Of a stretch of 64,000 nucleotides of DNA, positions 51,785 through 64,000 are shown in pieces (the stretch's first letter is position 1; each line of letters begins with the position of its first letter). A program made the position numbers and the translations under genes. The DNA is taken from assembly GCF_055900595.2 (NCBI RefSeq), contig NZ_CM148325.1, one strand, 5' to 3'. The notes beneath the pieces were generated by a model. That model was given only the letters and a program-made list of their open reading frames with translations. It was not told where the DNA came from and searched no databases.

Positions 51785-52022
51785 TTTGTTCTCCTTAATT
51801 ATGTAAGGAGTATTTGATCATGTATAAGCAATAAAAAACAGCTTCAGGTAATGAGGAATATCTCAATTTTTAAACATAAAATGCGAATTGTTTAGTACAA
51901 AAAAGCAGCGTTACGTGATCTTTCCCTGCTAAGGCCGGTAAGGCTAACCTCGTCTGGTTCCGCCACCCGTGAGATTAGCCTCTCCGTTGGCGGTATTAAA
52001 ATCACTTAGTGGAGGTTGCCTT

Positions 52023-52487
52023 ATGGCTACAATCCTCCCCCCTGATTATGATTTACTGTCCATTCCTTTCAGTTCTGCCACCGATTTAACTGACCTGGCC
52101 GATCACTGCGATCGTTTCGCTGAAACTCTTATAGAGTGTCACGATCCGGCGCTGAAAATGGCGCTATATGGGCGTCTTCGCGCCTGTCTCGCCATTCTGC
52201 ATCCCACGCTGAACGAGCCGATTCCGTCCCATCTGGTGGACAGCCTGACGCTTGATGATTTGCCGACGTCGTTTCCGCGCTTTGAACCAGATGCAGAACA
52301 GTTGTGTCAGTATTGCCTGACGTTGCTCCAGCTTCTGACGGAACGGGCGCAGGGATCGGAAACACAACAATCCCTTACTGGATTACTGTGCGAACTGGTC
52401 TGGTTCTTTGCAGCAAAACTGAAAGCACCACGCTGGCTGCATACTGCTGATGGCGTGGTCTTTATCGAAGATCTGATCGAACCATAA
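52023..52487 (+). CDS. Hypothetical acidic protein (paralog of 5296-5766)
   Basis: MATILPPDYDLLSIPFSSATDLTDLADHCDRFAETLIE... with GGAGG RBS and conserved leader. Confidence 0.6.
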   Translation: MATILPPDYDLLSIPFSSATDLTDLADHCDRFAETLIECHDPALKMALYGRLRACLAILHPTLNEPIPSHLVDSLTLDDLPTSFPRFEPDAEQLCQYCLTLLQLLTERAQGSETQQSLTGLLCELVWFFAAKLKAPRWLHTADGVVFIEDLIEP

Positions 52488-52653
52488 GATGGATATCCCC
52501 GGATTCTCGCCTGTAAGTGCAGGCAGAGATCCGGGAGAATACCCGCATACATTCAGCGCAAACATTCCTGCCAGACCATCCGCGCGCGGTTCCTCTGTCA
52601 GTCACAGTCCGCATCGTAGATAAACTGATGTTCCGTAGCTGATGTAATTAAAC

Positions 52654-53268
52654 TCATATATCCGTAAGTGATTTAAAATCAGCAACACGGGCAAATTCCT
52701 TTTTCGGTAGTACCAAAGACTCTAGTCGTGCTGATAGCAGTTCAACCATAAACTCTGCCCACCCTAAGTCAAATTCATCACAAAGAGGTCCACGACTTTC
52801 ATTTATAACTATTTTCCAATTACAATTTTTTTCTAATTTCCAGAATAAAACCTCTCCACTATCAGTTATACCAAACGGGAGAACACCATCTTCCGATGGA
52901 AAAAAATTGTATGGGAATTTTTCGCCATGAAGTTTGACCTCAGCAAGAGCCGAATTTATTTCCTTTGCTTGCTCGATTAAATTAATATATGGATTATCAA
53001 CAAACGGGCTAAAGATCCAAAGGAACCCATTTATTCGTCCTATCCCATATTCATCAATAAAGGATTTATAATCTTCTGGCAACAAAATACCTAGCCTAGA
53101 CTCTGCTTTCCGCCAGTCATTGACGCCATTATAATCGTCAATAAGGTTTTTATAATCATTAGACAATTGAATACCGAGTTCAGATTCTAACCGTCCCCAA
53201 TAAGTAGTTATTTTCTCATTAATAACTGCTGGTGGCGGAATTATTTTCTTTATCATATCAATAGACAT
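52654..53268 (-). CDS. SMI1/KNR4 (SUKH-1)-like orphan immunity protein
   Basis: Two LxxDYKxxIDxYxG-type repeats (LSNDYKNLIDDYNG, LPEDYKSFIDEYGIG); downstream of Rhs gene. Confidence 0.6.
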   Translation of the reverse strand: MSIDMIKKIIPPPAVINEKITTYWGRLESELGIQLSNDYKNLIDDYNGVNDWRKAESRLGILLPEDYKSFIDEYGIGRINGFLWIFSPFVDNPYINLIEQAKEINSALAEVKLHGEKFPYNFFPSEDGVLPFGITDSGEVLFWKLEKNCNWKIVINESRGPLCDEFDLGWAEFMVELLSARLESLVLPKKEFARVADFKSLTDI

Positions 53269-53313
53269 TGTCAGTTCCCTATTGGATTCAGTATAGAATC
53301 ATTAAGCACAGTT

Positions 53314-53511
53314 TCAATTTTCATAATCCAGAATTGGCTCATCTAATGCTTCTGAATAACGAAGAAGATTCTCTCGCAAATCTTCAAGGGATTCACCTCG
53401 CGGAGACACTGGTTTTTCACTATATCCACAAACCTTACCTGCTTCATTATAATATACCTCATAGATAGCAAGCTCCCCTTTAAATTGCATAACTCTATAA
53501 TTCCAAGTCAT
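53314..53511 (-). CDS. Small protein immediately downstream of Rhs C-terminal toxin domain, candidate cognate immunity
   Basis: 65-aa ORF starting 8 nt after the Rhs stop. Confidence 0.45.
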   Translation of the reverse strand: MTWNYRVMQFKGELAIYEVYYNEAGKVCGYSEKPVSPRGESLEDLRENLLRYSEALDEPILDYEN

Positions 53512-53519
53512 ATCTCCTC

Positions 53520-54383
53520 CTATTTTTTATGATAATCAACAATATCATGAATAATTATTTCATTTTCTGTTTCAGAATATAAAACTCTATCTCCCCCTCT
53601 TCCTTTACCACTTCCTGGTAAGTCGGCTGCTGATTTCCCTTTTAAATCACCATGTAAAGAATGCTGGTTTTTTCCTGACTCACCACGAGAAAGCATAATT
53701 TTAATAGCATCATAGGCTTCAGCTTGTTTTCCTTTGAGCGCATCCCCCTTCTTCGCCGCCAAATCCTCCTCTATGATGGTTTTCATTTGGGTAGGACATT
53801 TTTCACCTGCCAGCCCCCACGGGTCGCACCAACCCACCGGATTATGCACATAAGACTGCGTATCCAGCCCGCCGCTCAGTTTCAGCGGATCCTGGCTTAA
53901 ATACTGCCCCGTCCCGGCGTCGTAGTAGCGGTGTAAATTATACCACAGCCCGCTCTCCTCATCCTGCCACTGGCCCATGAAGCCCGCATCGCAGCTTTCA
54001 CGCTCACTGTCCGGCGAGTCGTTTGCAGCCAGCCCCCACAGGCTGCGGTGTTTCGTCCACACCTTCCGCCCGTTCGCGCAGTACATCTCCTGCGGCGCGC
54101 CGTCCGGGCCGGTCACTACCGGGTAAAAATAACTTCTGTCATCATTCGCCGCCCGGCTTTCCTTCGCCAGCAGTTCAAATCTGCCCCCGGTAGTGCCACT
54201 GCTCCCGTAGCGCCGGGCTGCCGTCTGCATAGCGTTTCTCACTTGTGGAAAGCGCCATCCCAAGCCACTGGTAGCGTACTTCGCTGATGGCGTGCGGGCT
54301 TCGTTTCCACGCTGCCCGGATAACGCAGCGTTTTGCCGTTCGTCTGCCAAAGGCGTCGTAGCTGTACTGCCACACTTCACCAT
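53520..54383 (-). CDS. Rhs C-terminal segment: end of core (PxxxxDPxGL) plus about 100-aa variable toxin domain; separated from core ORF by frameshift
   Basis: GLWYNLHRYYDAGTGQYLSQDPLKLSGGLDTQSYVHNPVGWCDPWGL then divergent C-terminus ending RVLYSETENEIIIHDIVDYHKK. Confidence 0.75.
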   Translation of the reverse strand: MVKCGSTATTPLADERQNAALSGQRGNEARTPSAKYATSGLGWRFPQVRNAMQTAARRYGSSGTTGGRFELLAKESRAANDDRSYFYPVVTGPDGAPQEMYCANGRKVWTKHRSLWGLAANDSPDSERESCDAGFMGQWQDEESGLWYNLHRYYDAGTGQYLSQDPLKLSGGLDTQSYVHNPVGWCDPWGLAGEKCPTQMKTIIEEDLAAKKGDALKGKQAEAYDAIKIMLSRGESGKNQHSLHGDLKGKSAADLPGSGKGRGGDRVLYSETENEIIIHDIVDYHKK

Positions 54384-57300
54384 CTGGTGTCTTTATCTCG
54401 CGCAGACGGTCGAAGTCATCCCAGCGGTAGCGCCACTCCTGCGGGCGAAAGCCGAGTTTTTGGTCGGTGCGCTTTGTCACCCTGCCGCAGGCGTCGTATC
54501 CGTAGCGGCTGTCACCGGCCTGGTTCACACATTCATTATTGTACTGGTGCTGCGACAGAATACCGTTTATCCGGCTTTCCGCTATCTGCTCATTGACCGT
54601 ATAGCGGTAGCGCTCTTCCTGTGCCGGACCACTGGCGTCCAGCCGCAGTACGCTGGTTATCTGGTCGCGGGCATCGTACTGGTAGCGCGTTTCCCGCTCC
54701 GTACGCGTTTTCGACCACACTTCATGCCCGGTCAGGCGGCCCGATTTATCCCACGCGTAACGGTGTTCGCCCAGCGGTCGCCACGATGCCACGCTCTGGT
54801 GGCTGCCTGCCAGCCGCTCTGCGCCCTGTTTTTGCCATGCCGTACGTCCGCAGGTGTCGTATCCCTGCTCCTGCATATAGACCGCATGGTTCAGCGGCGT
54901 CTGCGCCAGCCAGCTTTCCTCATCCTCCGGGCGGTAACGCCGATTTTTTTCAAGGCCCGCGGGGGAATGACTGAAGTCCATCCGGTGACCGTTGCTGCGG
55001 TAGCCCGTCAGAATGCCCGAAGCGTCGTATTCTCTCTGTGTTTCCCCGTCCGGCGTTGTGGTGCCAGTCAGCCTTCCGGCTTCGTCGTAACGGTACTCCG
55101 TGCGCTGGCCGTCCTGCTCTTCCGCCACCAGACGATGGCGTTCGTCCCACTCCAGTTTTACCTCACTGGTGAGCGTATAGCCTGCTTCACTGCCGTCGCT
55201 GCGCTCATACACCTGCGCACTCACCATCCGGTCATGGCGGTCGTACTGATAGCTGAGTTTCTGATGCTCGCCGCTGATGGTCGCCACCCGGCCATATTCA
55301 TCCCTCGCATAGCGCCATACGCTGCCGTCCGGGCGGTGTTTTTCTGCCAGCCGGCCCTGTTCATCACGGATATAGACGGTTCTGCGTCCCGACCAGTCCT
55401 CCTCCCCGGCCATCTGGCCCGCCGCATCGTAGTACAGCCGCCACTGCTGGTTGCCGCTGCGCGTAAGCTGCGTGAGCCTTGCGGCACCATCGTAGTCGCA
55501 AAGTATCCGCTGCCCGCCCGCGTCCTCCACTTCCCGCAGCAGGTCAAATGCCCCGTGGCGGTAGCGCGTGGTCTGGCCCATGGCCCCGGTGTGGAGAGTG
55601 ATTTTGCCTTCACCATCATAGCGGAAGGTTTCAGCGCCACCGTCGGCCCGGATTACTGCGCTCAGTTTCTCATGCGGGTTATCGGCACCGGGGCGGTACT
55701 GCCAGTTCACGCTGCGCCCTTCAGCATCCACCAGCCCCGTCAGCCGCAGCCAGCGGTCTTCCGTGTAATGGGTTGTGCGGCCTTCACCATCGGTATGGGA
55801 AAGCAGGCCACCGTGAGCGCTGTAGCTCCACTGTTCGTGGCTGCCGTCCGGGTACTGTATCTCCTTGAGCAGACCGTCTTCGGTATGACGGTACTGCCAG
55901 TTCTGCCCGTTCACCTCCCGGCGGATAAGATTCCCTTCGGCGTTATAATGGTACGCCGCCGTGGTGCGGTGGTCCTGGTATGCCGTAACCTGACCAAATT
56001 CATCCCACTGCCATTCACGTTTACGCCCGTTCTCGTCCGTTTCGCTCAGGATACGCCCGGCATAATCGCGTTTTATCTGAGTAATGCGCCCACCCGGCTG
56101 GCGAATACACAGCGGCTGGTCGTATTCGTTACGCTCCCATTCAGTGATACGCCCCAGCGGGTCACGCTGTTTTTTCAGCAGCCAGGACTCATCGAACCAC
56201 AGCGTGGTGGTGGCTCCGGTGGCATCGGTGTAATCGGTTCTGCGCTCCTCCGGGAAGTAGCGGAAGGTGTCGTTATACAGGCCTTCCTGTGTGCCTGTGG
56301 CAGTCACCCGGCCTTCATCGTCATAGCGCAGGTGGAAGTGCGTCGGGCCGTTGTCGCGCCAGGAACTCAGCCAGCCCTGTTCGGTATAGGTATAATGCAA
56401 CGCGCCATTAAAGCGGGTCTGCACATCGCTCAGTCGCTGTTCATCGCCGTGACTGATATAGTCATAGCGCACCAGCTCGCTGCCGTCTGACTCGTCGATC
56501 ACACGGAATATCTGCCCCTGCGGGCCACACATCACCCGCAGATTCAGGCCGCTGCTGTGGGTTACGTTTGTCAGTTGGCCGATGACGTTATAGGTGAAGC
56601 GAATTTCGTTGCGGTTGCGGTCTTTTATTGCCGTTAGCCGCAGGCGGCGTGCGCCGGGGGAGATGGGCGTAAAGATATAACCCAATTGTGAGTATTCGTC
56701 GAAGATAATAGCCCGCTCACGGTTTCCCAGGAGGCGATAGTGCGGGACAAGCAGGTTACGGCTACTGTATGGTGCCTGCTCCGTGGAGTAGGCCAGACAT
56801 AGCCCCTCAGCATCAAAGTAGGTGACGTTTTTCCCGTTGCAATCGAACTCCAGAAACTGCGACCAGTTACACAACCAGCGACTGCCCAGCAAACCACTAA
56901 CCGGATGTCGGCCTGTATAAGCACGTTTCAGCGTCAGCGGTAAAATATGCGGATAGTTGAAATCAGTTCGGTAATCCAGATATTCACCCGTTCCGGTATC
57001 CACCGGATCGCTGAACCCCTGACTGATACGCTCATTTGCGGCTCTGTTTAACTGCTTTGCTCCCCATAGAGCTGTTAACACTTCCAGACTTGATACAACA
57101 GATTGCTCCAGCACCGTCATATCGGCATTAATCGGCCCATACTGTCCGGTCGTCTTATCAGCCGTAATGGTTTTACATCCTTCCTGAATAACTGCCGAGC
57201 AGGTAATTTTATGGCCCTTACGCGCCAGCGGCAGGCTGTTGACGGAAATAATTTTGCTCCCTTCCACTATCTGTGGAGGAGGACTGCCCGGATCCTTACT

Positions 57301-57942
57301 ACATTCAACCGGATCAGTGACGCGAGCTACCGCTTTTCCTTCAAAAAAAACATTAGGAGAGCCTTCTACAATCTGTCCGGTTTCAGATGCCCAGCGGGAA
57401 CCAATTACCATCGCTGCGCCACCGACAAATCCACCAGCTAATCCCCCGGCCCCGGCAGCAACGGTGGCAGCCAGCACACCCAATGCCGCGCCCCCTGTAG
57501 CGACAACCAGAGCTCCCACTGCAATCCCTACAATAAGTCCACCGATTAACCCACCAATAGCACCCAGAAAGGAATTGTTATGAACAATGTGATGACCCAC
57601 ACACGCAGGTATATCTGTTGGGCCGGAAACTGCGTGATCTTTACCCCAGGTATCCATGAACCAGTCACCTGCTTTGGTGCCCAGCCATCCCCCCAGCATC
57701 CCGCCAACCAGTCCGGCAATCAAAGGGCCTCCAAATCCTGCAACAGCTTTGGCTATTCCGGCTGCACAGGTGTTTGCTGCTGCGGCTGCCAGTCCTACCT
57801 TTGCCGTTGCTCCCACCATACTGACAGCCATTATTCCAGTACTGGCAATATGTCCTGTGGTAGCAATACTCTCCACTGTTTCGGCATTACTGTCCCGTTG
57901 ATCCAGCTCCGCTAACTTCTCCTGCGCGCTTTTTTCCGTCAT
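54175..57942 (-). CDS. PAAR-Rhs protein, N-terminal and YD-repeat core (frameshifted relative to C-terminal segment)
   Basis: Gly-rich hydrophobic N-terminus, PAAR-like GSPNVFFEGKAVARVTDPVEC, many YD repeats (RYDDEGR, RYDGEGK, YRYDEAGRL). Confidence 0.85.
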   Translation of the reverse strand: MTEKSAQEKLAELDQRDSNAETVESIATTGHIASTGIMAVSMVGATAKVGLAAAAANTCAAGIAKAVAGFGGPLIAGLVGGMLGGWLGTKAGDWFMDTWGKDHAVSGPTDIPACVGHHIVHNNSFLGAIGGLIGGLIVGIAVGALVVATGGAALGVLAATVAAGAGGLAGGFVGGAAMVIGSRWASETGQIVEGSPNVFFEGKAVARVTDPVECSKDPGSPPPQIVEGSKIISVNSLPLARKGHKITCSAVIQEGCKTITADKTTGQYGPINADMTVLEQSVVSSLEVLTALWGAKQLNRAANERISQGFSDPVDTGTGEYLDYRTDFNYPHILPLTLKRAYTGRHPVSGLLGSRWLCNWSQFLEFDCNGKNVTYFDAEGLCLAYSTEQAPYSSRNLLVPHYRLLGNRERAIIFDEYSQLGYIFTPISPGARRLRLTAIKDRNRNEIRFTYNVIGQLTNVTHSSGLNLRVMCGPQGQIFRVIDESDGSELVRYDYISHGDEQRLSDVQTRFNGALHYTYTEQGWLSSWRDNGPTHFHLRYDDEGRVTATGTQEGLYNDTFRYFPEERRTDYTDATGATTTLWFDESWLLKKQRDPLGRITEWERNEYDQPLCIRQPGGRITQIKRDYAGRILSETDENGRKREWQWDEFGQVTAYQDHRTTAAYHYNAEGNLIRREVNGQNWQYRHTEDGLLKEIQYPDGSHEQWSYSAHGGLLSHTDGEGRTTHYTEDRWLRLTGLVDAEGRSVNWQYRPGADNPHEKLSAVIRADGGAETFRYDGEGKITLHTGAMGQTTRYRHGAFDLLREVEDAGGQRILCDYDGAARLTQLTRSGNQQWRLYYDAAGQMAGEEDWSGRRTVYIRDEQGRLAEKHRPDGSVWRYARDEYGRVATISGEHQKLSYQYDRHDRMVSAQVYERSDGSEAGYTLTSEVKLEWDERHRLVAEEQDGQRTEYRYDEAGRLTGTTTPDGETQREYDASGILTGYRSNGHRMDFSHSPAGLEKNRRYRPEDEESWLAQTPLNHAVYMQEQGYDTCGRTAWQKQGAERLAGSHQSVASWRPLGEHRYAWDKSGRLTGHEVWSKTRTERETRYQYDARDQITSVLRLDASGPAQEERYRYTVNEQIAESRINGILSQHQYNNECVNQAGDSRYGYDACGRVTKRTDQKLGFRPQEWRYRWDDFDRLREIKTPDGEVWQYSYDAFGRRTAKRCVIRAAWKRSPHAISEVRYQWLGMALSTSEKRYADGSPALREQWHYRGQI

Positions 57943-57972
57943 CTGTTCGTCCTTCCCGCTGAACTGGCTGGG

Positions 57973-58404
57973 TTATTTATCCTGTGGCATTCCAAAACAA
58001 AAATTCAATAATGCTCCCCGCATCGCTTTACGATCCTCCTCTGCCAGCGCCTGCGTTGAGGAATAGGTCAGCGTCAGTACTTGTCGCTCGTTCAGGATTA
58101 CCAGCAGCAACTGCTGTATCATCACCCCCTTGTTATCCCAGCTAAATTCCCAGTATTCCGCCGGGCGCTCCTGCACATGACAGCGTTCTTCTACGGTGAA
58201 CACCATTTTCGACAGTTCGGTACGGAATTTCTTTTTCTGCACCGCCAGATAGTCATCAAACTGCGCGCCTTCCGGCAATATTTCACGAGTGACAACTACA
58301 TTTGCTCCGGCAACCGCACTTAGTACTGGCGTCAGAATATTCATACTGCTGTCCTGCCAGTTTCCCGGCAGAGTGAAATGCCCTTCATTAATGAGATATT
58401 GCAT
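57973..58404 (-). CDS. DUF1795-like (Eag-family) T6SS effector chaperone
   Basis: 143-aa ORF in the canonical position between vgrG and the PAAR-Rhs gene. Confidence 0.6.
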   Translation of the reverse strand: MQYLINEGHFTLPGNWQDSSMNILTPVLSAVAGANVVVTREILPEGAQFDDYLAVQKKKFRTELSKMVFTVEERCHVQERPAEYWEFSWDNKGVMIQQLLLVILNERQVLTLTYSSTQALAEEDRKAMRGALLNFCFGMPQDK

Positions 58405-58436
58405 TGTTATTTTTCCCTGAAAATTAATGAAATGGA

Positions 58437-60656
58437 TTACTGTGGATTTAGCGCCAGATGGGTGGGTCCATCGAGGGTGATAGTGCCGTCTGAATTCATA
58501 ACAAGAGTGCTTTTTCCGACAGTCAACTTTATCTGCGTTGCTGCGGTAAGGTGTATCGCCCCGGTTTTTGACGTGATGGTGATATTCCCTTCTACCGTCT
58601 CCGTGCAGGTTCCCGTTTCTACCGTCACCTCGCGTTTACCCGTTTTCACCGTCAGAGACTGGTCGCCTTCCGTTACGGTAATATTCCGGTTGCCTTTGAT
58701 GGTTTCGGTATGCTTACCATCAACAAATTCCGTGCGGTCGATTTTTACCGTGGATGTTTCGTTATGAATGATGGTTTTCGTCCGATCTGCCTTTACCGTG
58801 TGTGTTTCGTTATTTTTCACGACGGTATTCAGATCTTTCTCCGCAAGAAACCTCACTTCTTCCGCCCCCGTTTTATCGTCAAAGCGCAGCATGTTTCCGT
58901 TGGTCGCCCCCCCCTGTAACGAGTGGCTGAATATCCCGCTCTGCGACGCCATGCCCGGTAGCCCCCACGGCGGCATGGTGTCCTGGTTGTAGGTGCGCCC
59001 CACGATAATCGGTAGATCCGGGTCGCCATTTTTGAAATCCACCAGCACTTCCTGGCCGATGCGCGGGATCTGGATCATGCCGAATCCTTTACCCGCCCAC
59101 GGATAGCTGACGCGGATCCAGCAGGAGCTGTTTTCGTCATTATTACCGTAACGATCCCAGCCAAACTGCACCTTCACCCGGCCATATTTATCCGTCCAGA
59201 TTTCCTGCCCTACCGGGCCGGTGACGATGGCGCTCTGCGGGCCTTTGGTGTGGGGTTTGCTCAGGGTTCGTTGTGGGCGGTAAACTTCGCGGGTGGGATG
59301 CAGTTCAAACGTGGTGACATAGGTAAAATGCTGATCCTGGCCGCTGTGCTGCGCGTTGTCCCGTAAAAACAGCGTGGTTTGTACCAACAGATATTCCTGA
59401 TTAATTTCTGCCGTCGGGTGATTCATCAACGTAAAGGTGTACCCGGTCATGAGGGTACGGATATGACCGGCCCCATGTGCCCGGCTGCCGGGGCTGCGCT
59501 GCGCTTCCATACGAATGCGCGTCAGCATCTCACCTTCGCCCGTAGTGAAGTAATCACCAGGCCATTCATAATGCTCATATTCAGCATGACCGGTATTACG
59601 CGGACTAGCCACGGTACTTTTAAGCAGCGAACGAGGCTTCATAAAATCAAAATCGTCCATCACCCACTTTCCAGTACGCAGTCTCTCACTGGCCGTAATG
59701 GTGTGGATAAATTCTTTGTCCAGTTTCAGCCCTTCCTGGTGCCACTCCACCAGTGGCGAGTCAGGGCACGCTTTATGACCATTGATGGCATCCGTCAGCA
59801 CCAGCGTATGGCAGTTCTCGCTGTGCTCAAACCACCAGTAGATTCCCCACTCCTGCATCAGGCGCTGGATGAAATCGAAGTCGGTTTCACCATACTGCAC
59901 CTGCCAGACGCGGGGTGGATAATTTTCCACCAGCCGCTTTTCCACCGGAAAGGAATATTCATCCAGTACTTCATCGAGAATATCCACCACGGTTTTGTTC
60001 TGGAACGCTTTGTAGTCGCTGGTATGGGTCAGCAGCTTCAGCCATGGCTCAATGCGTAATTCATACGTTACCGAACGGCCCTCATGGCCGACCACCCTCG
60101 CCGCCGTCACCAGCCCGCTGATATACCGTTTTCCGCCACCGTCCAGTTCGATACTGACGCACAGGTCTTTGCCTACCATGGGCTGAAGCGGCAGGTTGGC
60201 CGCGGGGGAAACGTATCCCAGGTTCAGGGCGTCCGGCGTTTTAAGCTGTACTGTGTAGGAAAACAGATTCCCAAGCCCTTCCGAACCATTCATGCCTGCG
60301 AACAGCAGCATCTGCGGCGGCACCGAACCACCACTTACTGTGACGTTATGCGCCCCCGGACCACCGGCTGCAAGCGACGCCGCCGCATCCTGAACTGCAC
60401 CAGCCATATCCGATATCCCTGCTGCTGCGGCGGCGGCTTGCGCAGCGGCTACTGCGGCTTTAACCAGACCTGACGGTTCCGGCAACGCACCAAACAGGTC
60501 CGCCACTGCCTGTTCTGCCATCTGCTCGGCGGCATCAGCTACATCGGTTGCGGCTGAACCTGTGCTCATACTGCCACTTTCGCCAGCTATTGGTGGTGTG
60601 GTGATGACGGGTCCACCGTTTCCAACTGGTTTATTACCCGTAGATACAAAACTCAT
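58437..60656 (-). CDS. vgrG: T6SS spike protein VgrG with about 110-aa Ala/Gly-rich N-terminal extension in frame
   Basis: gp27/gp5-like regions: [22 protein letters not shown]..., [46 protein letters not shown]. Confidence 0.9.
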
Positions 60657-60680
60657 GATATTTGCTCCTTTAATACCGGA

Positions 60681-61067
60681 TTAAAATCTAGCCCCTGGTG
60701 GCCAAAAAATATAAGTAATCACTCTCCATTGCCCGTCTTTATAATGAAACCAACATGTCAGATTCAAATCCCCCTGCAAATTCCAGAACATTTCCTTAAT
60801 AGGAACATTTTGAAATTCAGGATCTGTTATGCGATAAGTTTGATTCAAGCCGATATAATACTCACCAACAAATTTATATCGTGGCCTCACGAACTCATGA
60901 GCAGGCGGCCCATATTTCTTCATAAAAAAGATGTCATTACTTCCATCATGTATATCATTTTCTTCATAATATTTGGTGGATTGAGCAACTGCAGAAGGCG
61001 AGAAAACATTCACTGTAGTTATGTAAGTTATTGAAAGGAAAATCACTATAATACAGAAAAATTTCAT
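60681..61067 (-). CDS. Secreted protein (signal peptide), candidate immunity for metallopeptidase effector
   Basis: 128 aa MKFFCIIVIFLSITYITTVNVFSPSAVA...; conserved C-terminal half shared with 62776-63147. Confidence 0.55.
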   Translation of the reverse strand: MKFFCIIVIFLSITYITTVNVFSPSAVAQSTKYYEENDIHDGSNDIFFMKKYGPPAHEFVRPRYKFVGEYYIGLNQTYRITDPEFQNVPIKEMFWNLQGDLNLTCWFHYKDGQWRVITYIFWPPGARF

Positions 61068-61765
61068 TTGGTTACATTCAATAAAGTAAATTTAGTTTCA
61101 GGCATTATGACATTCAACGTTATAGTTGCGTTTTTAAGGTATCGTTCCCGAAGCTCCATTCCCACATTCATCAACCCACTAATATCTCCAACATACGGAG
61201 ACGAAGAATCATAATCATCATCTAAGTAACCAAGTACATGTCCGGCTTCATGAGGTATATTTACTTGCAACGTATTATTACAGTTAATACATTTCGCTAC
61301 TTTTTCCAGGTCCGCTGAATCAACATGAACCGTACTGTTTTTAAAATCAACATATGTTCTTAAATCAGCACCAGGCAAAACCTTTGTTGCAATAACCAAC
61401 CAGTCTTCATTCTGAGATGCAGAAATTATTCTTACATCAAAAGGCAAAGCTTTACCCTGAAATTTTTTAGCGAACTCAGATTCACCGGAAACAGAATAAG
61501 TTATTTTCCCATTCCATGCCTGCTGAACAGATAAATATATCGCTCGCATAAAAATAGCTTTTTCCCATATAATCCAGTCATCTGTAACGGTATTATCTTT
61601 ATACCACTCATACTTCCATCTTATCACAGCCGTAATCGAACCAGTATTTTGATTTAATAAATACGTCCTCCTACCATCCTTATGTATAATGATATCGCCA
61701 TCAATATTTGTTTTTTCATAGTATTCGGCCAGCAAACTATTCTCATCATATTTAAGCTTGGTCAT
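61064..61765 (-). CDS. Putative zinc metallopeptidase (HExxHxxGxxD), candidate T6SS cargo effector
   Basis: 233 aa with HEAGHVLGYLD motif; overlaps downstream gene by 4 nt; directly upstream of vgrG. Confidence 0.6.
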   Translation of the reverse strand: MTKLKYDENSLLAEYYEKTNIDGDIIIHKDGRRTYLLNQNTGSITAVIRWKYEWYKDNTVTDDWIIWEKAIFMRAIYLSVQQAWNGKITYSVSGESEFAKKFQGKALPFDVRIISASQNEDWLVIATKVLPGADLRTYVDFKNSTVHVDSADLEKVAKCINCNNTLQVNIPHEAGHVLGYLDDDYDSSSPYVGDISGLMNVGMELRERYLKNATITLNVIMPETKFTLLNVTK

Positions 61766-61831
61766 TTTACTCTCATTAAATACTAATTGTTTGTATCGAA
61801 AATATTATCTGGAAAAATATTATTTTATATA

Positions 61832-61977
61832 TTACGAGTATTGCCCCTTCAGCCGCAGCGCATCCACATACCGTCCTTCACTGCAGGGCAAGATTACGAA
61901 AGCCCGCCCCGCAAGGACTGACGCGAGGTAGTTTCTGTCCATGGCTGCTTTTATCATCTTACGTCTTAACCCTGCCT
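61832..61977 (-). pseudogene. H-repeat-associated (ISAs1-family) transposase 3' remnant fused in frame to truncated vgrG
   Basis: [24 protein letters not shown] matches the H-rpt protein C-terminus. Confidence 0.6.
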
Positions 61978-62419
61978 TGGTTTCGCCGTACTGCACCTGC
62001 CAGGCGCGGGGTGGATAATTTTCCACCAGCCGCTTTTCCACCGGAAAGGAATATTCATCCAGTACTTCATCGAGAATATCCACCACGGTTTTGTTCTGGA
62101 ACGCTTTGTAGTCGCTGGTATGGGTCAGCAGCTTCAGCCATGGCTCAATGCGTAATTCATACGTTACCGAACGGCCCTCATGGCCGACCACCCTCGCCGC
62201 CGTCACCAGCCCGCTGATATACCGTTTTCCGCCACCGTCCAGTTCGATACTGACGCACAGGTCTTTGCCTACCATGGGCTGAAGCGGCAGGTTGGCGGCG
62301 AGGGAGACATATCCGAGGTTCAGGGTGTCCGGGGTTTTAAGCTGTACTATGTAGGAAAACAGGTTTCCAAGCCCTTCCGAACCATTCATGCCTGCAAACA
62401 AAAGCAGCTGCGGCGGCAC
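61978..62419 (-). pseudogene. Truncated second copy of vgrG (first about 147 aa only)
   Basis: Near-identical to the N-terminal gp27-like region of the vgrG at 58437-60656 up to QVQYGET. Confidence 0.8.
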
Positions 62420-62430
62420 CGCACTACCAC

Positions 62431-62751
62431 TTACTGTGACGTTATGCCCCCCGGACCACCGGCAGCAAGCGACGCCGCCGCATCCTGAACTGCACCAGCC
62501 ATATCCGAGATCCCTGCTGCGGCGGCTGCGGCTTGCGCAGCAGCTACTGCGGCTTTAACCAGACCTGACGGTTCCGGCAACGCACCAAACAGGTCCGCCG
62601 CGGCCTGTTCTGCCATCTGCTCGGCTGCATCAGCTACATCGGTTGCGGCTGAACTGGCGCTTACAGCACTACTTTCTCCGGCTATCGGTGGCGTGGAGAT
62701 AGCTGGCCCACCGTTACTGCCAGATTTATTACCCGTAGATACAAAACTCAT
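62431..62751 (-). CDS. Ala/Gly-rich 106-aa ORF equivalent to the N-terminal extension of the intact vgrG, here separate because of a 1-nt indel
   Basis: [27 protein letters not shown]... about 85 percent identical to vgrG residues 1-105. Confidence 0.45.
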
Positions 62752-62775
62752 GATATTTATTCCTTTAATATCGGA

Positions 62776-63147
62776 TTAAAATTTTGCGCCCGGCGGCCAG
62801 AAAAAATAAGAAATAACCCGCCACTGTCCATCTTTATAATGAAAAAAACATGTCAGATTTAAATCCCCCCGCAAATGCCAAAACATTTCTTTGATGGGGA
62901 TATTTCTGAATTCAGGATTCGTTGAGCGATAGACATTTTCAATCTCTATATAATACTCACCGACTAATTTATAACGAGGCTTTATAAATTCATACGCTGG
63001 CTGACCATAGTTATTTAATAGAACATTCTCTTCAACTCCATTATACACACCACTCGCATTCAGATAAGCATACCCAGGAATATCAGACATGCTATTTTTC
63101 GCCCCACCCACTATCAAAAAAATAATCACAGCGTATATTAGTTTCAT
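62776..63147 (-). CDS. Secreted protein (signal peptide), paralog of candidate immunity at 60681-61067
   Basis: Conserved C-terminal half KPRYKLVGEYYI...PIKEMFWHLRGDLNLTCFFHYKDGQWRVISYFFWPPGAKF. Confidence 0.5.
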   Translation of the reverse strand: MKLIYAVIIFLIVGGAKNSMSDIPGYAYLNASGVYNGVEENVLLNNYGQPAYEFIKPRYKLVGEYYIEIENVYRSTNPEFRNIPIKEMFWHLRGDLNLTCFFHYKDGQWRVISYFFWPPGAKF

Positions 63148-63160
63148 TTTTTTACGCTTT

Positions 63161-63882
63161 TCACAAAAAATTAGAACCCGGAACCATTCTATTTAACCGC
63201 TCAATGACATTTCCCATATAACGAGAGCGCAGTTCCATACCAATATTCATTAACGCACTGGCATCCCCGGAGAATGGTGTAGTTGCTTTATCTGCATCAT
63301 CACTATAGTATTCATCGGTAAGATATCCAATAATATGCCCAAGCTCATGAGACAGCCCCATTTGCTTAGAGCAAACTTTTGATGAACCAAGACATTTAGC
63401 TGCTGCAACTATATCTTTAGAGTCAAGTTCAACGTATCGACTATTCCAGACAATGGAACTCTGACGAAAACTATTTGGATCATCATTATCAATTTTAAAC
63501 ACCACCACATCCCAATACCCATGACGATCAGTCTGAATTATTTCTATTGTGAAAGATAAATCCTTACCATTAAACTTACTGACAAACTCAGACTTCCCAG
63601 AAACGGATAAAAAAACCTTATTATTCCATGTTTGATTAATGACAAAAATAACTTTTCCATGAAAGGCTTTTTTTCCATATCTGTCCAATCAGTTTTTGCA
63701 TCCCATCTTTTTATCCAATTATATTTCCATCTCAGCAACAATGAGATTGCACCATTTTCACGGTCAATTCTTAAATCTCCCCAGGCATCATTGTCCCTGA
63801 TATATCGTTTATCCAGCATTAAGTCGTCATAAGCATCGTATGCCTGCTGAATAGCCTCATCATGAGAGTCACCCATGTTCAC
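63161..63882 (-). pseudogene. Paralog of metallopeptidase effector (HELGHIIGYLTDEY), split by a frameshift at a T7 run near 63668-63674
   Basis: Two overlapping ORFs (63544-63882 and 63161-63688) jointly align to 61064-61765. Confidence 0.6.
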
Positions 63883-64000
63883 CTCCTTATATTGCTATAT
63901 ATCCAATAAACCTGAAGATGCTTGCTTACCCACCAACGCAGACGGGACCAAGGGTAGCCTGAAGTCAACAGATAGCAATCAACTTGAAGTTCATGGGGAT

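Follow-up and report, generated by a model that had tools for sequence, protein, structure and literature searches.

This locus raises the question of what the Ala/Gly-rich segment in front of the VgrG head represents. A sequence-only reading of the window (the whole 64,000-nt stretch of DNA that was analysed) had left three options, namely a real N-terminal part of VgrG, a separate small protein and a translated leader; the first is retained by our analysis and the other two are not. The segment is very probably the translated tail of the 739-aa main-cluster VgrG, read from the ATG at 60656, and the stand-alone ORF in a second copy a by-product of decay, and the tail may serve in docking or self-association. 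The gene model comprises the following features.

58437-60656, minus strand: full-length vgrG/tssI coding sequence, 739 aa (ORF list, Pfam, TIGR03361, PGAP)
60354-60656, minus strand: N-terminal tail, residues 1-101 (composition, in-frame dN/dS, AF2 secondary structure)
60330-60350, minus strand: HNVTVSG, residues 103-109, first conserved strand of the VgrG head, conserved in the tail-less E. coli paralogue
60321-60323, minus strand: in-frame GTG, codon 112, alternative start of the sequence-only reading, 3' of the first conserved strand
60665-60670, minus strand: Shine-Dalgarno sequence AAGGAG, preceding the ATG (60654-60656) by 8 nt

The protein is composed of the N-terminal tail, a gp27-like head, an OB fold, a gp5-like beta-helix and a short DUF2345-like end. 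Pfam places Phage_GPD at residues 126-434 (E = 2.9e-100), Phage_base_V at residues 488-556 (E = 7e-14) and Gp5_trimer_C at residues 573-680 (E = 2.2e-26), and the NCBIfam match to TIGR03361, which begins at residue 112, scores 551 bits against a cut-off of 186. In the PDB sequence search, Salmonella VgrS (9MLP) scores 1127 bits, and 7Q5P, 4MTK and 8QJA give E values of 1e-112 to 1e-122. By its fold, its locus context and its closeness to a solved trimer, the protein is a VgrG/TssI spike protein belonging to a type VI secretion system (T6SS). An E. coli strain annotated by PGAP is 100% identical over a 471-nt query spanning the vgrG start.

Judging from the alignments, the canonical VgrG fold begins at about residue 99-103, with the strand HNVTVSG, and not at LLFAG. 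Residue 1 of 8QJA aligns to VgrG residue 99, and residue 14 of VgrG1 (4MTK) to residue 113; across the canonical structures, chain residue 14 or 17 is aligned to query residue 113. Tail-less relatives start just 13-18 residues ahead of the strand H-N-V-T-(V/L)-S-G, and a Ralstonia VgrG has HRTVKAT at the equivalent position. Since the canonical alignments run from residue 99 and the tail-less relatives have short starts, the extension comprises approximately residues 1-100. The earlier placement of the gp27-like start at LLFAGMNG therefore falls inside the fold, and the extension reported there does exist but is about 100 residues long, not 110-115. The GTG noted near the fold start is indeed present in frame, without a strong Shine-Dalgarno sequence; however, it sits inside the conserved fold, so that a start there would delete the first conserved beta-strand.

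The upstream ATG, in contrast to this GTG, is accompanied by a conserved ribosome-binding site. Each of the nine tail-bearing sequences, which come from Escherichia, Citrobacter, Enterobacter and Salmonella, has AAGGAG (AAGGAA in copy 2 and L002) at a distance of 7-9 nt ahead of ATGAGTTTT, which reads ATGAGCTTT in Citrobacter. At every intact locus examined, whether from E. coli, Escherichia sp., Citrobacter, Enterobacter or Salmonella, tail and head form one uninterrupted reading frame. The median dN/dS of the tail is 0.20 in the vgrG frame versus 1.43 and 1.32 in the shifted frames, with no stop codon in the vgrG frame versus 2-8 in the shifted ones; its synonymous sites are near saturation, and the gp27 head next to it has a dN/dS about half as high. 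The orthologue comparison thus finds coding conservation upstream of the gp27-like start. Where intact alleles differ in length, they do so in frame; one indel measures 21 nt, and Salmonella has a tandem duplication of 9 residues. The internal ATGs are not conserved (M84 is replaced by Ile in some orthologues, and M116 by Leu in others). An antisense ORF over the tail was also considered and rejected: it has a dN/dS of 0.28, yet is interrupted by stops in 5 of the 9 sequences.

These comparisons support the view that the Ala/Gly-rich stretch is a real, selected and translated part of VgrG, the same tail being conserved in frame in four genera rather than arising by chance, and the extension itself was thus correctly recognised in the earlier reading. 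The tail may be processed in mature VgrG. For annotation, the long vgrG ORF is the correct gene model, and the 106-aa ORF of the second copy should not be called a gene.

The tail is low in complexity, with 28 Ala and 14 Gly among residues 1-101 (42%), 9 acidic and 2 basic residues, and a pI of 4.05. Residues 1-32 are a coil rich in Gly, Ser, Pro and Thr, and the AF2 secondary structure contains three low-confidence helices at about 33-55, 63-78 and 85-96. Modelled alone, the tail has no confident fold (pLDDT about 50, pTM 0.24), and this model was used for secondary-structure tendency only; for residues 1-440 with a 15-sequence alignment, the mean pLDDT is 31 and the gp27 head itself is left unmodelled. 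One block stands out from the rest.

60450-60497, minus strand: best-conserved tail block, L54-V69, candidate short docking motif (11-sequence alignment)

In the 11-sequence alignment, the columns L54, G56, L58, P59, E60 and S62-V69 are invariant, and the column identity is 0.95. No match to residues 1-101 was obtained in Pfam, NCBIfam, PADLOC or, by sequence, the PDB; no toxic or enzymatic domain of an evolved (specialised-effector) VgrG is recognisable in these residues, and tblastn gives nothing significant for a paralogue of the tail motif elsewhere in the 64-kb window. A membrane-inserting segment like the Eag-bound prePAAR TMDs was rejected, since the best 19-residue window of the tail reaches a Kyte-Doolittle value of 1.49, with Lys and Gln inside, and lies below the threshold used (about 1.6 over about 19 residues). 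The segment looks like a low-complexity tail more than a folded domain, and its low complexity, in-frame indels and single conserved block fit a disordered tail that carries a candidate short linear motif.

The distribution of the tail is narrow. A tail profile run against 1.84 billion representative proteins returns only 28 matches, and every one is an N-terminus or a fragment from this same VgrG lineage of enterobacteria. By these searches, the tail is confined to the VgrG lineage of E. coli, Salmonella SPI-6, Citrobacter and Enterobacter, with no homologue detected elsewhere; the exact-pattern scan of genome contigs covers 8 loci, and this taxonomic range is a lower bound. The homologous-protein search returns mostly partial proteins and no 739-aa clusters.

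Among relatives, the length of the N-terminal tail is graded (13, 18, 38 and 96-101 residues), and the enterobacterial members begin with MSF. Two of them are particularly informative, namely a 664-aa orphan VgrG paralogue of E. coli (L009, P0141 group) and a 674-aa VgrG of Citrobacter farmeri (P0120). Both share with the tail-bearing VgrG a head of about 80% identity, the MSF start and the GxG-HNVT junction; however, their tails are 18 and 38 residues long, respectively, neither has the helices or the L54-V69 block, and their C-terminal regions and cargo genes are unlike those of tail-bearing vgrG. Since the 664-aa paralogue is common in E. coli, the tail is not a general requirement for VgrG of this type. 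In the DNA alignment to the same paralogue, homology extends only from the GxG-HNVT junction onward, and a simple insertion with conserved flanks is not demonstrable. The tail thus appears to have grown from the short N-terminal tail of 13-38 residues of related VgrGs, and the expansion would have produced an acidic, Ala/Gly-rich and weakly helical low-complexity region, in which codons were gained and lost in frame while the L54-V69 core was kept.

VgrG of this locus is the main-cluster spike of the aspV/yafV type VI secretion island in E. coli and the orthologue of VgrS of Salmonella Typhimurium (STM0289 / SL1344_0284; PDB 9MLP), the main-cluster VgrG of the SPI-6-type T6SS. The two heads are nearly identical, an Eag chaperone and a prePAAR Rhs gene lie downstream in both loci, and VgrS carries the same N-terminal tail (MSFVSTNNK...), which is about 62% identical. 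The tail of the Salmonella Typhimurium type differs in being about 5 residues shorter and in its Ala tract. Residues 1-80 of VgrS, the counterpart of the tail, were described as a "region of predicted disorder" and cut away for crystallography; the full-length protein was insoluble and the construct 81-729 soluble (bioRxiv 10.1101/2024.12.20.629533). The sole structural study of this lineage removed the tail because of the insolubility of the full-length protein. The truncated VgrS crystallized in an unusual open, domain-swapped form with an empty cup about 52 A wide, the deep surface of which is electropositive; it did not bind Hcp2, and the authors proposed that the cup could hold cargo (bioRxiv 10.1101/2024.12.20.629533).

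Since acidic residues outnumber basic ones in the tail by 9 to 2 and the VgrS cup is electropositive, we regard the tail as a candidate ligand of the cup. Translation from the ATG at 60656, behind the conserved Shine-Dalgarno sequence, would yield a single 739-aa polypeptide, and three tails per VgrG trimer would come out of the gp27 head at its Hcp-proximal rim, a position in the assembled machine that we deduce from gp27 domain 1, whose fold is tube-like. There, the tails could serve as a flexible docking or self-association element. In the most likely arrangement, they would fold back into either the head's basic inner cup or the first Hcp ring, or act as its plug, influence the solubility of the spike and the spike-tube junction, and presumably be fired out along with VgrG. 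Our best guess for the function is a flexible and partly helical tail of acidic character, which would sit at the Hcp-proximal base and bind a partner there. A more specific version, in which three acidic, Ala-rich tails form a functional module folded back into the basic gp27 cup or first Hcp ring, acting as a built-in plug or latch for the closed, Hcp-competent head or as an occupant of the place of lumenal cargo, is rather unlikely. If this version were true, the open, domain-swapped and Hcp-non-binding structure of VgrS (81-729) would partly reflect the removal of the tail.

Other spike proteins share parts of this architecture. P. aeruginosa VgrG1 (4MTK/4UHV), P. protegens VgrG1 (7Q5P) and 8QJA have the gp27-like head, the OB fold, the gp5-like beta-helix and a strand equivalent to HNVTVSG; however, their chains begin between a few and about 16 residues ahead of query residue 113, and none has a 100-residue tail. 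C-terminal extensions of VgrG include TTR domains, a helix-turn-helix tail bound by Tap/DUF4123 adaptors, and toxin domains (bioRxiv 10.1101/2024.12.20.629533). The evolved or adaptor-binding VgrGs likewise combine a conserved scaffold with a lineage-specific terminal extension, which in their case mediates partner or effector binding; these extensions are C-terminal, lie at the spike-tip end and have demonstrated partners or activities, whereas the tail described here is N-terminal, faces the tube and contains no domain that could be recognised. N-terminal extensions are reported for the PAAR-like tip proteins Francisella IglG and Burkholderia PAAR5 (PMC5014421; bioRxiv 10.1101/2023.02.09.527577). 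They are also lineage-specific, N-terminal and part of the spike complex, but they are carried by PAAR, at the tip, and have no sequence similarity to the tail.

The tail sits on the main T6SS spike of E. coli, Salmonella (SPI-6), Citrobacter and Enterobacter. The T6SS common to these bacteria matters in gut colonisation and in competition between bacteria. To our knowledge, all known effector-loading features of VgrG are located at its C-terminal, tip end, and we know of no functional N-terminal module described for a T6SS spike. Should the tail bind a partner or gate the head-tube junction, regulation or cargo loading would gain a new site, and the VgrS crystal structure would have to be read differently; should it have no measurable effect, it is no more than an expansion of low complexity.

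Among the alternatives, the one that survives best concerns the genes around vgrG.

61064-61765, minus strand: E2, 233-aa HExxH protein of the SPI-6 VR2 candidate effector family (homology to the L016 protein)
60681-61067, minus strand: I2, 128 aa, with an N-terminal hydrophobic signal-like segment, presumed cognate immunity protein
62776-63882, minus strand: E1/I1, the older pair, located upstream of the vgrG remnant (I1 62776-63147, E1 63161-63882)
57973-58404, minus strand: DcrB/DUF1795 (Eag-type) chaperone gene, downstream of vgrG (PGAP "DcrB-related protein")
53520-57942, minus strand: prePAAR/TMD Rhs effector gene, broken in this window by a +1 frameshift within a G-run

In the matching E. 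coli strain, tssM is followed in turn by tagF, effector/immunity pairs, vgrG, the DcrB-related (Eag) gene and Rhs, an order that other strains share. E2 is 46% identical to a 243-aa Salmonella protein (L016), and an I2-type immunity gene is paired with the effector in all loci examined; neither E2 nor I2 has a Pfam match. E1 is frameshifted in the window, with an A7 run at 63674 versus A8 in strain R32_14_1F. Because of such further homopolymer frameshifts in E1 and Rhs, part of the locus may be decaying or carry sequencing errors.

It could be supposed that the tail is a loading handle, which tethers the upstream metallopeptidase-like effector of the E2 family in or near the gp27 cup. An E2-family HExxH effector/immunity pair is located upstream in seven of nine tail-bearing contexts, directly upstream of vgrG in six and about 1 kb upstream in one (Salmonella L016); the VR2 family consists of candidate peptidoglycan-targeting effectors with no known loading route (PMC10469887), and the cup is seen by the VgrS authors as a possible cargo holder. 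However, effector types that are 33-53% identical to each other adjoin nearly identical tails. Between the window and L002, for instance, tail residues 1-35 are 100% identical and the effectors 34%. The tail tracks host and VgrG phylogeny, with no covariation with the upstream effector type found; moreover, tail-bearing VgrGs also lie behind unrelated genes (L008, L013), and the tail-less paralogue has an upstream HExxH effector pair of its own. We therefore consider a dedicated handle improbable.

Somewhat less probable still is that the tail is a functionless expansion, generated by replication slippage in GCN-rich DNA and tolerated. Such an origin would agree with the frequent in-frame indels and the tandem duplication, with the predicted disorder, with the lack of homologues outside the clade in the profile search and with the existence of a tail-less paralogue. 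Nevertheless, the dN/dS is just about twice that of the gp27 head, the 16-residue block is nearly invariant over four genera despite saturated synonymous sites, and the tail is kept at all intact main-cluster loci examined.

The remaining alternatives depend on the second copy and on the vgrG start region. The second copy consists of the following features.

62431-62751, minus strand: copy-2 tail ORF, 106 aa, 5' end of a decayed vgrG remnant (ORF list, PGAP)
62447-62452, minus strand: six-base G-run (C6 on the plus strand), one base short in copy 2, exactly at the tail/head junction
61979-62430, minus strand: rest of the vgrG fragment in copy 2, equivalent to head residues 103-258 or so, and nearly identical to its copy-1 counterpart
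61832-61978, minus strand: 3'-end remnant of an ISAs1-family transposase gene, abutting the vgrG fragment (DNA search)

The tail is repeated here with 89% protein identity to that of copy 1, as had been noted. The junction reads GGTCCGGGGGCGCAT in copy 1 versus GGTCCGGGGG-GCAT in copy 2, and the 1-nt deletion at 62447-62452 closes the copy-2 ORF after 106 aa, in agreement with the indel proposed earlier. From the copy-2 stop codon to the next called start (GTG at 62419) we count 11 nt, in place of the 9 nt given before. PGAP flags this copy as "frameshifted; incomplete; missing C-terminus" (pseudogene). The first 83 nt past its breakpoint are 96.5% identical to annotated ISAs1 transposase genes, and the 48-aa peptide encoded there, which has no NCBIfam match, was assigned by DNA search to the ISAs1 remnant. 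The frameshift is common to strain R32_14_1F, and another E. coli (P0003) has an in-frame allele of copy 2. Read from the sequence, copy 2 is a pseudogene that consists of the 5' part of a vgrG, cut off beside an ISAs1 remnant and frameshifted in the G-run. It was probably left when a second block of effector, immunity and vgrG genes was stacked into the locus.

Copy 2 has exactly the arrangement expected if the tail were a separately translated protein of ~106 aa, with VgrG started at an internal GTG or ATG and the fusion in copy 1 incidental, and several database entries are stand-alone tail ORFs of 77-121 aa. We regard this as very improbable. The separation is seen only in a truncated, frameshifted pseudogene beside an IS remnant, and the short ORFs in the databases are fragments due to frameshifts or contig ends, their C-terminal residues being unrelated; the intact loci of four genera are all fused in frame, no internal start is conserved, and the GTG at codon 112 would cost the first strand.

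Hardly more credible is an RNA- or translation-level leader or coupling element for vgrG expression with a peptide of no role: the tail starts 24 nt past the end of the upstream immunity gene I2, no promoter-like site lies on the minus strand between that gene and vgrG (counts in the promoter and terminator scan of 60250-62000 being at or below chance), and GC3 is 0.44 in the tail versus 0.63 in the rest of vgrG, but the Rfam scan of 57900-64000 gives nothing (best match E = 0.41, far under its gathering score), no stop codon parts a leader peptide or upstream ORF from the head, each internal ATG or GTG either lacks conservation as a start or lies inside the fold, and selection acts on the amino acids of the tail.

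The 739-residue product of the open reading frame at 58437-60656 gives strong matches to VgrG/TssI models, with TIGR03361 matching residues 112-626 (551 bits), and Pfam places Phage_GPD at residues 126-434, Phage_base_V at 488-556 and Gp5_trimer_C at 573-680. The Ala/Gly-rich tail that the sequence-only reading had recognized ahead of the gp27-like head is indeed there: the first 101 residues contain 28 Ala and 14 Gly, together with 9 acidic and only 2 basic residues (pI 4.05). The canonical fold, however, begins further upstream than the proposed LLFAGMNG (residue 117), as judged by comparison with solved and related VgrGs. In the alignments, the 8QJA VgrG pairs its residue 1 with residue 99, and P. 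aeruginosa VgrG1 pairs its residue 14 with residue 113. The close paralogue of Escherichia sp. E1V33, which lacks the tail, is approximately 80% identical in the head and occurs in many E. coli as a 664-aa protein, starts with MSFTATDYPSGALVGSGTHNVTLSG, and Ralstonia VgrGs have only 13 residues ahead of the strand equivalent to HNVTVSG. Because of these alignments and N-termini, the strand HNVTVSG (residues 103-109) is part of the conserved fold, and the extension spans approximately residues 1-100. The GTG noted ahead of LLFAGMNG exists, at codon 112, but initiation there would delete that conserved strand.

The tail is made within VgrG and is under purifying selection. The window is E. coli DNA; over a 471-nt query spanning the vgrG start, it is 100% identical to strain R32_14_1F, and 112 complete E. 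coli genomes contain at least 80% of this query. The locus has tssM/tagF on one side and yafV on the other, with tRNA-Asp adjoining in strain L73. PGAP annotates VgrG in the intact loci opened as 737-739 aa, tail included, and the tail is also an in-frame fusion in Escherichia sp., Citrobacter amalonaticus, Enterobacter sp. and Salmonella enterica. In 9 of 9 tail-bearing sequences, AAGGAG (AAGGAA in copy 2 and in locus L002) lies 7-9 nt 5' of ATGAGTTTT (ATGAGCTTT in Citrobacter). Coding conservation upstream of the gp27-like start, on which the sequence-only reading turned, is present: over codons 1-98 the median dN/dS (Nei-Gojobori) is 0.20 in the vgrG frame, versus 1.43 and 1.32 in the shifted frames, and the adjoining head gives ~0.1. 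Stops are absent from the vgrG frame in every sequence, while the shifted frames have 2-8. Length variation among intact alleles keeps the frame: strain R32_14_1F and the window (62534-62555) differ by a 21-nt indel in the Ala tract, and the Salmonella allele P0035 has a 9-residue segment, GMAQAAAAA, duplicated in tandem. Internal Met codons vary, M84 being Ile in some orthologues and M116 Leu in others. Taken together, the fusion, start region, dN/dS, absence of stops, in-frame indels and unconserved Met codons show that tail and head form one long polypeptide. Of the three options considered earlier, the first, a real N-terminal part of VgrG, is right, and a separately translated small protein and a translated leader are rejected.

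One antisense frame was also considered as the coding source; it mirrors the low ratio (0.28) but has stops in 5 of 9 sequences. The GCN-rich DNA of the Ala tract seems prone to slippage.

The vgrG gene belongs to the following arrangement, in which E1/I1 and E2/I2 are pairs of an HExxH candidate effector and a presumed immunity protein.

58437-60656, minus strand: vgrG open reading frame, 739-aa product
61832-63882, minus strand: two stacked modules, E1, I1, vgrG 5' fragment and ISAs1 scrap; then E2, I2 and full vgrG

The tail is repeated in the second copy (62431-62751; protein identity 89%), and DNA alignment confirms the 1-nt indel, with GGTCCGGGGGCGCAT in copy 1 and GGTCCGGGGG-GCAT in copy 2, so that the frame closes after 106 codons. 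Copy 2 is a decayed 5' remnant of vgrG, because it tracks vgrG no further than about codon 258, the 83 nt past the breakpoint match ISAs1-family transposase genes at 96.5% identity, PGAP labels the same stretch in strain R32_14_1F 'frameshifted; incomplete; missing C-terminus', and the frameshift falls in a six-base G-run. The frameshift is common to the window and the R32_14_1F assembly; another E. coli allele of copy 2 (P0003) is in frame at the G-run. The 106-aa ORF is a by-product of decay and not a gene. In protein databases, too, many short stand-alone tail ORFs are fragments produced by a frameshift or a contig end, and their C-terminal residues are unrelated.

As a sequence feature the tail is not new. 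The 739-aa VgrG is a representative, from E. coli, of a known protein family, and its Salmonella orthologue VgrS (STM0289) carries the same uncharacterised tail. The crystal structure of VgrS (PDB 9MLP) was obtained after residues 1-80 had been cut away as 'a region of predicted disorder', with no further comment, the full-length protein being insoluble; the truncated protein has an unusual head, open and domain-swapped, with a cup ~52 A wide that has an electropositive, sulfate-binding deep surface, and gel filtration showed no binding of the truncated protein to Hcp2 (bioRxiv 10.1101/2024.12.20.629533). Other VgrGs tolerate N-terminal tags; for example, Serratia His6-VgrG1 is functional (PMC13373197). 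Our literature search found no paper on a role for any VgrG N-terminal extension.

Residues 1-32 of the tail are rich in Gly/Ser/Pro/Thr, with MSFVSTxNK and TTPPI conserved, and three Ala-rich segments follow. AF2 predicts helices at 33-55, 63-78 and 85-96 (pLDDT ~50-58, pTM 0.24) and no confident fold of the tail; hydrophobicity does not reach transmembrane level (top 19-residue Kyte-Doolittle window 1.49, below the usual threshold). Searches of Pfam, NCBIfam, PADLOC and PDB gave no match to the tail, and a profile of 11 tails found only 28 matches among 1.84 billion representative proteins, all in the same lineage. Since related VgrGs have N-terminal tails of 13, 18 and 38 residues, the two enterobacterial ones starting with MSF, the long tail looks like an expanded ancestral short tail. 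Selection at the protein level and the absence of an RNA family match disfavor a role of this region as RNA. A purely neutral expansion is also disfavored, by dN/dS and by the best-conserved block, L54-V69, almost invariant in four genera despite near-saturated synonymous sites.

This block suggests binding to a conserved partner, to the head itself or to the other two tails. Because the head's first strand directly follows the tail and gp27 domain 1 folds like the tube protein, the three tails of a VgrG trimer would emerge at the Hcp-proximal rim, where their net acidity would suit the basic interior of the cup reported for VgrS. We tentatively prefer, with low confidence, to read the tail as a flexible element that docks or latches where spike and tube meet. 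It is less likely to serve as a handle for the HExxH cargo effector encoded upstream, since nearly identical tails adjoin effector types that share only 33-53% identity, the tail tracks VgrG and host phylogeny, other genes precede some tail-bearing VgrGs, and the tail-less paralogue too has its own upstream effector pair. In E1V33 (L009:1854-2737) a 176-aa HEMMH-motif protein and a 118-aa lipoprotein-like protein lie upstream of the tail-less 664-aa VgrG; they are probably a further pair of cargo effector and immunity protein.

GC3 is 0.44 in the tail (60354-60656) versus 0.63 in the rest of vgrG (58437-60353); the upstream effector and immunity genes (60681-61765) have only 35% GC overall. 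The evolutionary history of the tail may differ from that of the head.

The locus runs E1, I1, vgrG remnant, ISAs1 scrap, E2, I2, vgrG, eag (DcrB/DUF1795 chaperone gene) and rhs (prePAAR Rhs effector gene), the second effector/immunity/vgrG block being stacked behind an older one. The two modules, with E1 and E2 of the same HExxH family but only 34% identical, suggest that pairs of the VR2 type (an SPI-6 candidate effector family) are swapped along with the vgrG 5' end, leaving orphan pairs analogous to orphan Rhs tips, though on the upstream side. Besides the G-run of copy 2, two further single-base homopolymer differences from strain R32_14_1F break genes in the window: A7 instead of A8 in E1 (63674), and an extra G in a G-run of the Rhs core (~54190) that gives ...HYRGQI* instead of ...HYRGGFELLAKE. 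These breaks reflect either a decaying locus or homopolymer errors of the assembly. The Rhs gene is 96.8% identical to that of R32_14_1F (L001) over ~4.7 kb, beyond which the C-terminal toxin tip and the immunity gene (~52000-53800) are fully divergent, which is the usual Rhs tip polymorphism.

The T6SS island beside tRNA-Asp is lost in many E. coli (strain L73 and ~30 other genomes). What these genomes retain (L003:6956-8490) is E2, I2 and the initial 72 nt of the vgrG tail, which an Rhs fragment directly abuts, with 135 nt matched at 100% identity; this remnant is a deletion scar in which the immunity gene survives. On a metagenome-derived contig (L018:5001-5778), an ORF at the vgrG position has tail residues 1-35 followed by unrelated sequence, and a weakly Aspzincin_M35-like ORF comes after it; this may represent either a chimeric effector or one more scar of recombination.
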